Made by a program: the position numbers and the translations under genes. Positions 2,606 to 42,574 of a stretch of 42,574 nucleotides of DNA are shown piece after piece. Positions within the stretch are counted from its first letter, which is position 1; every line of letters starts with the position of its first letter. Origin of the DNA: a virus (lineage: Duplodnaviria > Heunggongvirae > Uroviricota > Caudoviricetes); the IMG/VR virus record IMGVR_UViG_2675903468_000002, positions 1 to 42,574 of that record; one strand, 5' to 3'. The notes beneath the pieces are model-generated. The model had not been told where the DNA came from, searched no databases, and saw only the letters and a list, made by a program, of their open reading frames with translations.

Positions 2606-6007
<3,402 letters not shown>

Positions 6008-33847: not shown

Positions 33848-34068
33848 ACGGCACCTCCCAGACGCTTAAACATTTTTCCAGACAGAAATACCGCCAGCGG
33901 GTAACTGATGGTGTAGCTACGCCCCTGTAGTTCGCACACGACTTTCTGGCTTTCAGCGTTGACTAGGCAAACCCGCAGAACGTGACCGTTGCTGGTGGCG
34001 AACCACTGCCCCACACGGGGGCAACGGTTGTATCGGTGATACAGGGAATTAACGATGCGGCGAATCAT
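33844..34068 (-). CDS. Small hypothetical protein
   Basis: 74 aa with strong AGGAGG RBS; function unknown. Confidence 0.5.
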   Translation of the reverse strand: MIRRIVNSLYHRYNRCPRVGQWFATSNGHVLRVCLVNAESQKVVCELQGRSYTISYPLAVFLSGKMFKRLGGAV

Positions 34069-34616
34069 GGGTGCGCCTCCTTGTCAGAACCATTAAGTCT
34101 GGAATCAACAAGTGCAGCGCCAAAAACAGCATCTCCTACACGGTCATACAGCTTGCTCGCCAGCGGAGATTCAACGGCCTTAAGCATGGGGTAAAGCTGG
34201 CTTTTCCAGATTTGATGGATTTCACGCAAATGCAGGTATACGCCTCTGGCGTTTCGTGCAACAGCTGACATATCAACCGCGTCAGCACCAGATAAATTCT
34301 TCTCCATCTGGTTAAAGGCGTTGATGTATGCCTCTTTGAACCGGGCTGCACGTTTGCCAGTAAAGCCCATTGCCAGGAACGCGAAGCCATCGCGGGTGAT
34401 TTGATAGCAAGGTAGTTTGCGGCCTGTGCAATCGGTGTAATCACTCACCGAAAAATTGCGGGCAGTGAATGATGCGGAGCATTCAAGCGTGCGGATCTTT
34501 TTCAGTACATCGTCATGACGTTTGGAGAAGAAGTTGGCAACAGCCAGGGATGAAGTAACAGCCTGACCATCAACGATGGCAATTTCAGGTTGAGTGAGGG
34601 TTGGGATCGTAGCCAT
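34065..34616 (-). CDS. Rha-family phage regulatory protein
   Basis: Start MATIPTLTQPEIAIVDGQAVTSSLAVANFFSKRHDDVLKKIR with AAGAGG RBS; Rha-type domain. The ORF-track extension to 34937 starts with TTG and contains a terminator, so it is not used. Confidence 0.7.
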   Translation of the reverse strand: MATIPTLTQPEIAIVDGQAVTSSLAVANFFSKRHDDVLKKIRTLECSASFTARNFSVSDYTDCTGRKLPCYQITRDGFAFLAMGFTGKRAARFKEAYINAFNQMEKNLSGADAVDMSAVARNARGVYLHLREIHQIWKSQLYPMLKAVESPLASKLYDRVGDAVFGAALVDSRLNGSDKEAHP

Positions 34617-34632
34617 GATGGCAGCCTCTTTG

Positions 34633-34658
34633 GTGATTTTAAATAACTCACCACCAAG
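34633..34658 (-). promoter_or_regulatory. Inverted repeat overlapping a candidate promoter just upstream of the Rha gene
   Basis: GGTGA-ttttaaataac-TCACC palindrome within an AT-rich TTATTTAAAAT stretch ~20 nt upstream of the Rha start. Confidence 0.3.
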
Positions 34659-34781
34659 GCTTTCCACGACCTTATTGGTGGTGAGACGTACAGGGGTGGA
34701 AATACCGGTCACCAAAGAACCCGGCCCAACCGAAGTTGGCCCTGCACGCCCCACCATAATTTGGGCGTAATGCTGCTCATG

Positions 34782-34808
34782 ACACAAAAAAACCGCAAGA
34801 GCGCGGTT
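34782..34808 (-). terminator. Intrinsic terminator downstream of the Lar-like gene
   Basis: Minus strand AACCGC-GCUCUU-GCGGUU followed by UUUUUUUGUG. Confidence 0.6.
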
Positions 34809-34933
34809 GTGCGCTTTGGTGAATTCCGGGTTTCCACGCCCGGCACCCGCTTTATAAGGTGCTGGAATAGTGTAACGTCCCGAAATTGCAGAATCAATAT
34901 GTTGGTTGCGGATCATTTTGTACCTACTCGCCG

Positions 34934-35143
34934 TCAATCCGCGTTTTCGCGCTGATTCCAGTCATGAACAGCACGTTCTTTCGAATCAGGGATCTGGTTT
35001 GCGTTACAGCAAGTACATGCGACGTAATAACCATCATCGCCATCCAGAAAATATTTCACCTCAATGAGTTGTACTTCCGGATTTCCGCAGAACGGGCAAG
35101 GTTTCAGATCGACATCACCAGTTACACACGTCTTGGTTTGCAT
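34934..35143 (-). CDS. Small zinc-ribbon protein, Lar-like restriction-alleviation family candidate
   Basis: 69 aa with CPFCG...CTCC cysteine motif; TAATG overlap with the upstream antirepressor gene suggests translational coupling. Confidence 0.5.
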   Translation of the reverse strand: MQTKTCVTGDVDLKPCPFCGNPEVQLIEVKYFLDGDDGYYVACTCCNANQIPDSKERAVHDWNQRENAD

Positions 35144-36078: not shown

Positions 36079-36378
36079 TCATCGCGTGGACATTTCTGAT
36101 GAATCACTCTGCCCATCTTCCGTGCGCGCTAGGCTTGGATTTGAAATTTTGCGTAACGAATCAGGAATTCCATCTTCAGGGTGAGGATAAAGATCTGGCC
36201 TTAAGCCATGTGGCGTGACCTTCCATGCAACTACTTCACATACGCGTAAAACAAAACGAGCAGGAATTGTGTTTTTTGAAAACCACTGATTCACCGCTTG
36301 CGGAGTTACACCAAGGTTTCGTGCAATGGCATTTTGCGCAATTAATGCGCGAAGTACGTCGTAATCATTTCCTTTCAT
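36079..36378 (-). CDS. Cro-like HTH regulator (first gene of the rightward early operon)
   Basis: 99 aa; HTH LRALIAQNAIARNLGVTPQAVNQWF; divergent from the cI-like gene across a 133-bp operator region. Confidence 0.65.
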   Translation of the reverse strand: MKGNDYDVLRALIAQNAIARNLGVTPQAVNQWFSKNTIPARFVLRVCEVVAWKVTPHGLRPDLYPHPEDGIPDSLRKISNPSLARTEDGQSDSSEMSTR

Positions 36379-36511
36379 AGCAAAACACCAATATTAACTT
36401 GATAACACAAGAATATATCAAGATTAAATTAACATGCAAGTTGCAAAAGGATCGAATACACTAAAATCAAGTAAAGATTTATCCTTGTAAAGAAACCCAC
36501 AGGACCTGGTC
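36379..36511. promoter_or_regulatory. Immunity operator/promoter region (OR-like) with divergent promoters
   Basis: Minus-strand promoter TTGCAT-16-TATATT; plus-strand candidate TTGCAA-15-TAAAAT; inverted repeats built on CTTGAT/ATCAAG half-sites (for example CTTGATAACACAAGAATATATCAAG). Confidence 0.5.
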
Positions 36512-37201
36512 ATGAAGAACGTCAAAAACACGGAAAATCGAATAGCCGCGATGCTGAAAGCAAAAGGATGGACTCAGGCTCAACTGGCCCGCAAGTTAGG
36601 TGTGAGTGCGCAATCAGTGCAGTACTGGACAACAGGAAAAACATTTCCACGGAGTGATAAGCTCGCGCATTTATCAGAGATTAGCGGTTATCCACAATCC
36701 TGGTTCTTAGGTGAAGACTCCTCACCAACCTTTTCCTCGCAAGAGAAACACCAGACAAGAACAGATAGCGTCGTGTTTAATGTCCTTGATGTTGAGTTTA
36801 GTTGCGGTGATGGAACTCATGTCCGTGGTGACTTGATAGATGTAGTGCGCTCAATAGAACTTGATCCTGAATATGCCCGACGTCTTGTTGGAAATCGGGC
36901 ATTCAAAAATATAGAAATAGGTAACGCCAGAGGAGACAGTATGGCTCCCACAATCTCACCTGGCGACCTTCTTTTTCTTGATAAGACAGTAACTTATTTT
37001 GATGGCGATGGTATTTATGCATTTTGTTTTGATGGAGAATGCTACGTGAAAAGGCTTCAAAAAATTGGAAGCAAAATCATGGTGTTATCTGATAACCCCA
37101 ATTATCAACCATGGAGCATCGAAAAAGAGGGGTTAGCTCTGCTTTATATCCAGTCTAAAGTGATCTCATCAGTACCATTCAACATAAACAGATTTGGTTA
37201 G
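36512..37201 (+). CDS. cI: CI-type prophage repressor (HTH plus LexA-like S24 autopeptidase domain)
   Basis: 229 aa; HTH GWTQAQLARKLGVSAQSVQYWTTGK; C-terminal S24 domain with GDSMAPTISPGDLLFLDK and downstream Lys. Confidence 0.85.
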   Translation: MKNVKNTENRIAAMLKAKGWTQAQLARKLGVSAQSVQYWTTGKTFPRSDKLAHLSEISGYPQSWFLGEDSSPTFSSQEKHQTRTDSVVFNVLDVEFSCGDGTHVRGDLIDVVRSIELDPEYARRLVGNRAFKNIEIGNARGDSMAPTISPGDLLFLDKTVTYFDGDGIYAFCFDGECYVKRLQKIGSKIMVLSDNPNYQPWSIEKEGLALLYIQSKVISSVPFNINRFG

Positions 37202-37212
37202 TCTTTGATTTT

Positions 37213-37236
37213 AACGGGCTTTGCCCGTTTTTTTCT
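37213..37236 (+). terminator. Intrinsic terminator after the repressor gene
   Basis: AACGGGC-TTT-GCCCGTT followed by TTTTTTT. Confidence 0.7.
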
Positions 37237-37264
37237 GCCTGAAATATACGATATCAATTTTTTC

Positions 37265-37293
37265 TTGACAGCCTATTTCCCAAAGCATAATAT
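37265..37293 (+). promoter_or_regulatory. PL-like early-left promoter with operator-like palindrome
   Basis: TTGACA-17 nt-TAATAT; flanked by ATCAAT and the ATCAATTATAACTTGAT palindrome sharing half-sites with the OR region. Confidence 0.5.
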
Positions 37294-37346
37294 CGCACCA
37301 TCAATTATAACTTGATTTAATTCAATTTAAAATTGTTGGTGGATAT

Positions 37347-37799
37347 ATGAAGACACTAAAAGCAACTCCAGAAACAACTAATTTTATCAACTGCGGCTGT
37401 GTTACGCTTAAGGGCTTAGAACTTGATTCCTTTGCATTAAATATTGCAAATTTGCTAAGTGCTGTACGCACATTCCATCTTCTGGATTGTGCTCGCTCAA
37501 AGGAACTGGGCATTGAGGTAATGGAATTTATCCATGAATATGCTCTATCTGCTGCTTCTCCTGCACAACAAAAACAATCCTTCCCTGAAAGCTGGCTGGT
37601 TAACCTTCGCACCCAACGCGAAGCCTGCGGCTTAACAACAGCCGAACTCGCCAGGCTGCTCGCTCTTGATGAAGAAATCATCATCCAGTGGGAGAGCGGA
37701 GAGTATGAACCAACCATCAGTATGCTTATCCCACTGGCAAATATTCTTGGCTGCGATCCGATGTGGTTATTGACTGGTAGCAATGCTGCAAAGGAGTAA
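37347..37799 (+). CDS. HTH (XRE-type) protein with N-terminal domain of unknown function; first gene of early-left operon
   Basis: 150 aa; C-terminal HTH CGLTTAELARLLALDEEIIIQWESGEYEPT; not Arg-rich and not N-like. Confidence 0.6.
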   Translation: MKTLKATPETTNFINCGCVTLKGLELDSFALNIANLLSAVRTFHLLDCARSKELGIEVMEFIHEYALSAASPAQQKQSFPESWLVNLRTQREACGLTTAELARLLALDEEIIIQWESGEYEPTISMLIPLANILGCDPMWLLTGSNAAKE

Positions 37800-37804
37800 C
37801 AGCA

Positions 37805-37996
37805 GTGAATAGTAATATCCATGACAATTTCGAAGGTATTTGTCTGGCATCGGATTCATTTGCAATAAACATTCATAGTCTGTTGTGCGCTGCGCAAGTT
37901 TTACAGATGTCAAATAATCAGAATGCAAAAACATTAGGTGATGAAATCCTGTCTTTTGCATGTGAATATTCGAAAGCTGCAGTCAAAAAGAATTAG
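37805..37996 (+). CDS. Small protein paralogous to the N-terminal domain of the preceding HTH protein
   Basis: 63 aa; GTG start 8 nt after an AAGGAG RBS that overlaps the upstream stop; shares DSFA-NI, LL, K-LG-E, F--EY pattern with residues ~25-70 of the upstream protein. Confidence 0.5.
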   Translation: MNSNIHDNFEGICLASDSFAINIHSLLCAAQVLQMSNNQNAKTLGDEILSFACEYSKAAVKKN

Positions 37997-38073
37997 CGCA
38001 ATAACAATAAATATTCACTGAATGTTTATTACGGTTTTATCGCCGGGGATTGTTGCAACCTTTATTCGCAGGA

Positions 38074-38187
38074 GATTATGTTATGACTTTCCTGAAACAT
38101 AAGGCATCGTATAAAACTGCCTGCCTCATTGCACAACATGGAGATTCTTATCTTCATATAGCCAACCTGTATTTGCGCAAAGCATAT
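38074..38187 (+). CDS. Very small ORF (37 aa), hypothetical
   Basis: AGGAGA RBS then ATG; MTFLKHKASYKTACLIAQHGDSYLHIANLYLRKAYGR. Confidence 0.3.
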
Positions 38188-38200
38188 GGGAGATAAATAA

Positions 38201-41287: not shown

Positions 41288-42574
41288 ATGAGTAATACAT
41301 CATACCCAACAGGCGTTGAAAATCATGGCGGATCACTCCGCATATGGTTTCACTATAACGGCAAACGTGTCAGAGAAAACCTCGGTGTTCCTGACACCGC
41401 CAAAAACCGGAAAATCGCAGGTGACCTCCGCACTTCCGTTTGTTTTGCAATCAGAATGGGGAGTTTCGACTATGCAGCACAGTTCCCTGAGTCCCCTAAC
41501 CTGAAACACTTTGGTCTGGGGAAAAGAGAGATAACCATTAAAGCACTTTCGGAAAGATGGCTTGAACTGAAGAAAATAGAGATTTGTGCAAATGCACTTA
41601 ACCGTTACCAGTCAGTAATTAAAAACATGTTGCCAATGTTAGGTGAAAAAAGACTGGTTTCATCTGTAACAAAAGAGGATTTGCTTTTCGTAAGGAGAGA
41701 TCTGTTGACCGGTTATCAAAAGCTTTCTAACGGAAAAATTTCTTCCATAAAAGGACGCTCAGTGGTCACAGTAAACTACTATATGACAACCATAGCTGGA
41801 ATGTTTCAATTTGCAACAGATAATGGTTATACATCAGGAAATCCATTTAACGGTCTGACACCATTAAAAAAGTCCAAGATAGAACCAGATCCCCTCACCC
41901 GTGACGAATTTATTCGTTTTATTGAGGCTTGCCGTCATCAACAAACAAAAAACCTGTGGATTATCGCTGTATACACGGGTATTCGTCACGGGGAGCTGGT
42001 ATCACTGGCCTGGGAAGATATAGACCTTAAAGCGAGGACTATAACCATCCGCCGGAATTATACAAAACTAGGCGAATTCACTCCACCAAAAACTGATGCT
42101 GGTACCGGAAGAACGATTCATCTAGTTCAACCAGCTATTGATGCTCTTAAAAGCCAAGCGGAAATGACCATGCTTGGAAAACAGCATTCTGTAGAGGTAA
42201 AGCAGAGGGAATATGGGAGAAGTACTGTGCATAAATGCACTTTTGTTTTTAGTCCTCAGGTAATAAAACAGCGGCAGTTTTCCGGACCGCACTATAAGGT
42301 TGACTCCATCAGGGAGTCATGGACAAGTATCTTAAAACGCGCAGGTCTGAGACACAGAAAATCGTATCAATCCAGGCATACCTATGCATGCTGGTCACTT
42401 GCCGCAGGAGCTAATCCTAGTTTTATCGCAAGCCAGATGGGCCACACAAACGCACAAATGGTATTCAATGTTTACGGAGCATGGATGAAAGACAACAATC
42501 ACGAACAAATAGAACTTCTTAACAGAAGACTATCTGAAAGTGTCCCATGCATGCCCCATAAGAAAGCGGGGTAA
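41288..42574 (+). CDS. int: Tyrosine-type site-specific integrase
   Basis: 428 aa; catalytic-domain motifs including GIRHGEL (Arg), HxxR-type RHTYACW and the tyrosine in VFNVYGAWM; stop codon is the last 3 nt of the window. Confidence 0.9.
   Translation: MSNTSYPTGVENHGGSLRIWFHYNGKRVRENLGVPDTAKNRKIAGDLRTSVCFAIRMGSFDYAAQFPESPNLKHFGLGKREITIKALSERWLELKKIEICANALNRYQSVIKNMLPMLGEKRLVSSVTKEDLLFVRRDLLTGYQKLSNGKISSIKGRSVVTVNYYMTTIAGMFQFATDNGYTSGNPFNGLTPLKKSKIEPDPLTRDEFIRFIEACRHQQTKNLWIIAVYTGIRHGELVSLAWEDIDLKARTITIRRNYTKLGEFTPPKTDAGTGRTIHLVQPAIDALKSQAEMTMLGKQHSVEVKQREYGRSTVHKCTFVFSPQVIKQRQFSGPHYKVDSIRESWTSILKRAGLRHRKSYQSRHTYACWSLAAGANPSFIASQMGHTNAQMVFNVYGAWMKDNNHEQIELLNRRLSESVPCMPHKKAG

Follow-up and report, generated by a model that had tools for sequence, protein, structure and literature searches.

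A small alpha-hairpin domain shared by an early HTH regulator and its free paralogue in a lambdoid E. coli prophage

When a phage gene for a DNA-binding protein is followed by a gene for a free copy of that protein's own non-DNA-binding domain, the question arises of what the second protein does to the first. Such a pair, referred to here as genes A and B, lies at 37347-37996 of the window, i.e., the whole stretch of 42,574 nucleotides analysed. An earlier note on this DNA had proposed that B acts as a decoy or titrating partner of the regulator, or that the two make up a toxin-antitoxin-like pair. The whole window is a complete lambdoid E. coli prophage, closed by a complete integrase ORF (41288-42574). 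The locus is 100% identical to E. coli UTAK-5, and the window shows partial kinship to phiP27, PhiR49_2, and a series of Stx1a-, Stx2a-, and Stx2d-converting phages. When a 3-kb query around the locus was used, only approximately 45% of it matched phiP27, at 92% identity.

To place the pair in its operon, the immunity region and the sequence downstream of it were read. The immunity region carries a YdaS/Cro-like gene on the minus strand (36079-36378) and, on the plus strand, a gene for a cI-like repressor with an HTH and an S24 peptidase (36512-37201). The cI-like gene is followed on the same strand by an intrinsic terminator (37213-37229), in which a perfect 7-nt inverted repeat gives a 7-pair stem with 5 G-C pairs, then a T-run. 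The best sigma-70 promoter of the region is PL-like, TTGACA-17 nt-TAATAT (37265-37293, plus strand), with 10 of the 12 consensus positions matched. It is flanked by an OL-like operator pair (37253-37316) consisting of ATCAATTTTTTCTTGA (37253-37268) and ATCAATTATAACTTGAT (37300-37316). Both palindromes have the form ATCAA-N6-CTTGA, and their half-sites recur as direct and inverted repeats (families D1, D6, and I1-I3) in the cro/cI intergenic region (36390-36480); by this pattern they are putative cI-binding sites. This PL-like operon, whose promoter the operators flank, begins with genes A and B. With the promoter, the operators, and the cI terminator located, the earlier placing of A in the slot where lambda has N held, as A is the first gene behind a cI-controlled PL-like promoter. 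The likeness to lambda N is one of position only, namely that of the first gene past a repressor-controlled leftward early promoter. No Pfam N-family match was found for A, its N-terminus MKTLKATPETTNF is not arginine-rich, and the leader gave no Rfam match. Unlike lambda N, A is a DNA-binding HTH protein.

Gene A (37347-37799, plus strand) encodes 150 aa and ends in AAG GAG TAA, the stop TAA being 37797-37799. The coordinates and the ORF were as the earlier note had given them, and so was the C-terminal XRE-type HTH. The HTH_3 profile (Pfam, XRE/Cro-C1-type) matched residues 87-141 with 39 bits against a cut-off of 23 (E=8.6e-10), and A matched phrog_4836 with E=8e-77. An AF2 model was built on a 42-sequence alignment; the single-sequence model (pLDDT 46) was not used. 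It predicts a disordered segment (residues 1-23), two helices (26-45 and 49-69), a low-confidence linker (70-81), and a five-helix HTH (82-143; 37590-37775, plus strand) of the lambda-repressor-like fold, with pLDDT of about 90 for the hairpin and above 90 for the HTH. The hairpin domain (37422-37553, plus strand; 60.6 bits with the hairpin HMM) is the part of A that is paralogous to B. Since this hairpin is predicted confidently as an isolated unit and 45 residues are unable to bury a core of their own, the model was counted for oligomerisation. Being tethered to an XRE HTH, an isolated 45-residue alpha-hairpin would most simply be an oligomerisation module.

The HTH of A is P22-C2/434-like and nearly invariant across heteroimmune relatives. 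In contrast to the P22 C2 and 434 repressors and Cro, A lacks an S24 peptidase or other C-terminal dimerisation domain, carries its HTH C-terminal to the hairpin, and is encoded in the PL operon rather than at the immunity switch; furthermore, many A relatives have two or four tandem HTHs. Most A homologues are in fact approximately 230 aa long and consist of the same hairpin followed by two tandem HTHs. The A of the window is a one-HTH form, which the earlier note had not recognised, and such forms are common in several lineages. Compared with a gene of the 230-aa type, the DNA of gene A in the window was 95% identical up to 37760, then lacked about 265 nt (the second HTH), and was 75% identical from there through B. 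The junction (37760-37787 in the window, 3415-3680 in the related locus L004) falls in a repeated LGCDP / LNCD(L/P)MWLLTG motif, as expected for a deletion or duplication between two HTH repeats. When genome contigs were scanned with the HTH peptide, only unrelated XRE proteins from other phyla came back. Across the A family the HTH copy number is 1, 2, or 4. In the 404-aa protein of locus L107 (127-1341), the XRE HTH is repeated four times in tandem, every repeat closing with a CDPMWL-like motif (CDPMWL, CDPRWL, or CRTMWL), and there is no hairpin; the related early operon from which it comes has genes for TerB and DUF3927 proteins as well, and for a free hairpin protein. The variable HTH number and the hairpin-less protein with four HTHs fit a valency that is gained either from tandem repeats or from self-association.

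Gene B (37805-37996, plus strand) lies 5 nt behind A in the window and encodes a free hairpin protein of 63 aa (phrog_4587, E=1.7e-29; 88.9 bits with the hairpin HMM), the hairpin core being residues 14-59 (37844-37981, plus strand). Its Shine-Dalgarno sequence AAGGAG (37791-37796, plus strand) is contained within the last two sense codons of A. The GTG of B (37805) starts 8 nt later, as the earlier note had said; however, AAGGAG does not overlap the stop of A but abuts it. When the sequence was read directly, no other in-frame start was found upstream of this GTG. The geometry fits coupled translation of A and B, which is probable in the window. To the objection that the 63-aa ORF might be untranslated, the substitution pattern gave a clear answer. 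Among 38 distinct B alleles from 89 loci, the median pairwise dN/dS was 0.20, with dS saturated. B is therefore a real gene and is under purifying selection. RefSeq missed this conserved gene, and in the 100% identical genome RefSeq/PGAP leaves it unannotated (L002 4606-4797; locus_tag gap RS08270-RS08260); 66-aa homologues of B are called by other annotation pipelines. The B of the window ends in VKKN* and its closest relatives in VKKELAQ* (37982-37996). The short end is consistent with a 1-nt loss in the 3' A-run (GTCAAAAAGAATTAG), and the short allele is common to three loci.

Subsequently, the similarity between the two proteins was assessed. BLASTP aligned residues 24-69 of A with residues 14-59 of B at 39% identity (E=1e-8). 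The Smith-Waterman score of the pair was 81, compared to 24.6±4.4 for 5000 shuffles (z=12.8), none of which reached 81, and the next best of 385 six-frame segments of the window scored 40. Moreover, the PHROG profiles cross-matched, with A matching phrog_4587 at 3e-7 and B matching phrog_4836 at 1.4e-3; B also matched phrog_5451 at 7e-23. The residues common to both hairpins (F, A, N-I, L-L, A, G, F, E-Y) occupy the a/d/e stripes of the heptad, and no hairpin type departs from L26, A29, and Y55. The alignment that the earlier note had seen between B and the N-terminal domain of A thus stood well above shuffled controls, and anatomy and paralogy support the view that the regulator gene precedes one for a free copy of the regulator's non-DNA-binding domain.

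To find out how far this domain extends beyond the locus, a search profile was built from free and fused hairpins. The family is small: at E<=1e-3, a set of 1.84 billion protein cluster representatives yielded only 43 that belong to it, and both A and B match the profile. It comprises phrog_4587, phrog_5451, and the N-terminal part of phrog_4836. Three architectures were seen: free proteins (60-80 aa), hairpins fused to the N-terminal side of one or two HTHs, and hairpins forming the C-terminal half of a 121-aa protein (phrog_5451, e.g., phiP27 L08). Fused and free forms recur among the 43, the free hairpin being the commonest architecture among distant representatives. The named sources are E. 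coli, Shigella, Salmonella, and Citrobacter. No relative of the hairpin was found in Pfam, NCBIfam, PADLOC, or PDB sequences. Against PDB sequences the hairpin profile matched only de novo designed helical repeats, and 10 distant members gave nothing with Pfam. Likewise, no literature was found on either gene (including that on phiP27, Eru-type Stx phages, and their repressors) or on the hairpin family. The small domain family of the hairpin has not been described before; in the locus it takes the form of a regulator and a free paralogue.

A pair of this design is known from Bacillus subtilis, where the two-helix hooks of the small protein SinI and of the repressor SinR join in a heteromeric bundle of four helices, by which DNA binding is abolished (PMC3163267). 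A resembles SinR (and the pair resembles SlrR/SlrA) in having an XRE/phage-repressor-type HTH and a separate two-helix module on a flexible linker. B resembles SinI in being a protein of approximately 60 aa that is encoded by the adjacent gene and is homologous to the non-DNA-binding two-helix module of the regulator. Nevertheless, the domain order of A is inverted, with the hairpin N-terminal, and the helices of A and B are longer, about 20 residues each. B lies downstream rather than upstream of the regulator and has no separate promoter; the A/B pair belongs to a phage early operon of Enterobacteriaceae, and B does not covary with the hairpin of A. Neither A nor B matched Pfam SinI at E<=1, and hhalign of the hairpin profile against SinI and SinR gave a probability of 0.1%. 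A/B would thus be an analogue, not a homologue, of SinR/SinI.

By this analogy, we speculated that A is an early regulator that oligomerises via its hairpin and that B modulates A by hairpin mimicry, as SinI does with SinR. We hold this as our leading but tentative reading, to which we give rather less than an even chance. In such a model, A and B would open the cI-repressed early leftward (PL-type) operon of a lambdoid E. coli prophage related to phiP27 and the Stx phages. A would be a sequence-specific DNA-binding regulator, and an HTH that varies so little among heteroimmune relatives leads one to expect a conserved target. A search for such targets by repeated k-mers and dyads gave only cI operators and terminators. 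The N-terminal hairpin of A would most likely be a self-association module that builds an intermolecular four-helix bundle. B would be co-transcribed with A and, in the window, probably translated in a coupled manner, and may form mixed bundles with the hairpin of A, thereby altering the oligomeric state and the DNA binding of A. The effect of B may be that of an antagonist or of a cofactor.

About 90 related prophage loci were compared. A free hairpin gene was present downstream of the HTH family of A in 84 of the 86 informative loci. This synteny and the recurring fused and free architectures were counted for mimicry, and a decoy or titrating partner, as proposed earlier, remains the most economical mechanism, with precedents in SinI/SinR and AimX/AimC. 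However, B lies immediately next to A (+6 or -3 nt) in some lineages only. In most loci the B domain is found 165-750 nt downstream of A, often within a separately started 121-aa protein whose C-terminal half it makes up, so that the family as a whole is not marked by tight coupling.

These distances also bear on the suggestion of a type II toxin-antitoxin-like pair in which the HTH protein A would be the antitoxin to a toxin B. The gene order agrees with such a pair, the HTH gene coming first and its stop abutting the start of a gene for a small protein, and A gave weak matches to XRE-antitoxin profiles (HipB, MqsA, HigA-type), all far below the cut-off. Nevertheless, B matched no toxin family in Pfam, NCBIfam, or PADLOC; it is a 63-aa alpha-hairpin homologous to the N-domain of A, which ought to be the partner-binding domain of the supposed antitoxin. 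Furthermore, the pair has no dedicated autoregulated promoter and sits inside a repressor-controlled early operon, and in relatives A and B are up to 750 nt apart and freely reassorted. A toxin-antitoxin pair is thus very improbable, as it would lack a toxin family match, a self-contained autoregulated module, and a lasting partnership.

The comparison further revealed how A itself is put together. The N-terminal domain of A exists in at least seven very divergent types, which correspond one-to-one with the cI type; the four main N-domain/cI pairs were found in 51, 26, 6, and 4 loci. Heteroimmune phages become homologous in their DNA precisely where the HTH starts, at about 37605 in the window. 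This assigns the hairpin to the immunity block and the HTH, together with B, to the conserved early-left block. This is mosaicism at the level of the domain, with the recombination joint between the immunity and early-left regions lying exactly at the hairpin/HTH boundary inside one gene. We considered whether the one-to-one link between N-domain and cI is a sign of the hairpin binding cI or Cro, and set this aside. Linkage is enough, since immunity types share no homology over the whole cro-cI-OL-N-domain block, and the nearest place conserved for a crossover is the DNA that codes for the HTH.

If B paired specifically with the hairpin of A, the two should change together. However, the B allele MTGNIHDKYEGL... 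follows three N-domain types of A, and the same allele follows A N-domains that are only approximately 25% identical or belong to the other hairpin class. The hairpin classes ('DSFA-NI' and 'DAL-N') of A and B were matched in the window, L063, and L104, with local-alignment scores of 81-115, and mismatched in L011 and L078, with scores of 32 and 35. Moreover, in 29 loci A had no detectable hairpin homology and B was still present, including the locus of the 404-aa protein with four HTHs. Some further candidates for a hairpin were compared. The phiP27 orf82, between L10 and L08, showed no similarity to the L10 N-domain as a free copy of it (z=0.2), and the L10 N-domain, the 68-aa ORF of L106, and the 137-aa ORF of L101 gave hhalign probabilities below 1% against the hairpin profile. 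A specific cognate A-B interface was rejected, as the N-domain of A does not covary with B, and the comparative data weaken a specific cognate pairing. Given the lack of covariation and the presence of B beside hairpin-less A proteins, either the interface is promiscuous and lies on the conserved core, or the mimicry model is wrong.

Alternatively, A and B may be paralogues without direct interaction, with the hairpin binding a third partner, either a phage protein or a host protein such as RNA polymerase. A would then bring the partner to DNA, B would engage it free or act unrelatedly, and adjacency would reflect duplication and operon linkage. The independence of B from the N-domain type and its presence beside hairpin-less A proteins speak for this possibility. 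In addition, the polar residues Asn22 and Tyr55 are conserved across all hairpin types and could mark a shared ligand surface, and free hairpins are commonest among distant representatives. Nevertheless, no candidate partner was found, the hairpin matches no known interaction domain, and the near-universal synteny with this HTH family would be a matter of coincidence or linkage. We regard a third partner as somewhat unlikely.

Some anti-regulators act by blocking the DNA binding of a regulator, such as MOR on TP901-1 CI and Prx on ComR. B may likewise be an anti-regulator that binds the conserved HTH of A and not its hairpin. This would leave the homology of B to the N-domain of A unexplained. 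Moreover, B and the HTH are on the same side of the mosaic junction, so that linkage explains their shared conservation. Blocking of the HTH by B is quite unlikely. The junction also counts against mimicry, as B may accompany the HTH through mere linkage on its conserved side.

The position of the pair behind a strong early promoter led to another consideration, an Aca/Acr-like early locus. In this case A would be an autoregulator damping the strong early promoter, and B and the neighbouring small ORFs would be anti-defence or host-takeover effectors. The HTH of A resembles Aca- and controller-type proteins in fold, and the pair, directly behind the promoter, is followed by small conserved ORFs (38074-38196, phrog_340, and phrog_1515). 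The order 3' of gene B is the conserved 40-aa ORF, phrog_340, phrog_1515, an SPFH protein, xis, and int. However, no PADLOC or anti-defence family was matched, and the paralogy of A and B would have no explanation. Furthermore, operators of the cI type vary with immunity and the HTH of A is invariant, which makes it unlikely that A acts on those operators. We hold an Aca/Acr-like locus to be improbable. Among the small ORFs, the 40-aa ORF MTFLKHKASYKTACLIAQHGDSYLHIANLYLRKAYGR (38074-38196, plus strand) has a good ribosome-binding site and is conserved as far off as the distant locus L101 (MSFIKDKTAYKTAILIFVHYGEEYRHIADLFIRKAYGL); probably, it too is a small gene of this operon that annotation has missed.

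Returning to hairpin mimicry, a further phage system was compared. In the arbitrium phages, the small anti-repressor AimX blocks the oligomerisation of the repressor AimC (bioRxiv 10.1101/2025.11.23.689978). With SinI/SinR, it is a precedent for small helical proteins that imitate the oligomerisation domain of a repressor. A differs in standing next to a classical cI/S24 repressor as an additional regulator, AimC being itself the main repressor of its phage. Nor is AimX described as paralogous to AimC; the two systems belong to different hosts, and A/B involves no peptide signalling. As an early-expressed phage HTH regulator A also resembles lambda CII, and phrog_4836 bears the label 'CII-like regulator', which comes from annotators of family members. 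However, A differs from CII in architecture and in genomic position, lambda cII lying to the right of cro. A matched no phage CII family in Pfam at E<=1, only the PHROG free-text label saying 'CII-like', and this label is not backed by homology to lambda CII.

In a widespread group of E. coli prophages, expression from the leftward early promoter starts with the A/B module. This group includes Stx1a-, Stx2a-, Stx2d-, and Stx2e-converting phages, and a gene of the lambda N type is missing from this position. Should B tune A by hairpin mimicry, the pair would be the counterpart of SinI/SinR and AimX/AimC in a Gram-negative phage, and an extra small-protein control point in the early programme of toxin-converting phages. 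The design of a regulator with a free paralogue is familiar; the module is conserved, experimentally tractable, and positioned where it could influence the lysis-lysogeny programme.

A second immunity layer is suggested by two gathering-level Rfam matches on the minus strand of the window, a C4 antisense RNA (34674-34761, 83.6 bits) and the isrK Hfq-binding sRNA (34786-34862, 67 bits). Both overlap the 5' part of the ORF 34065-34937 (minus strand), which is a Rha-family regulator in the RefSeq annotation of the identical genome. From the matches, the layer may be P1/P7 immI-like or Gifsy-1 IsrK-like and would belong to the rightward operon. A bolder and unlikely proposal is that the hairpin is a new fast-evolving protein-protein switch of phiP27-like and Stx phages, in which the immunity-specific hairpin of A and the pan-specific B make a SinI/SinR-type third lysis-lysogeny layer in addition to cI/Cro and the C4-RNA/antirepressor system. 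Since several such prophages are often co-resident in E. coli, a third layer could mediate cross-talk or interference and so affect the induction of Shiga-toxin phages.

Some minor observations were made around the pair. A conserved 25-mer stands right behind the stop of B (38006-38030) and is a near-perfect 12-1-12 palindrome in the window. It sits 1-10 nt past the B stop in 77 of 108 loci, regardless of the A-B distance. Its palindromic character was not conserved among the loci compared, the commonest variant being without it. In some relatives (L004 4645-4863; L006 5958-6176), a gene for a 72-aa ParE_like protein (PF24732) that is absent from the window lies further along the early-left operon. 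Finally, an ATG ORF of 166 aa runs antisense to the entire gene A (37322-37822, minus strand), and it is probably a by-product of the codon composition of gene A.
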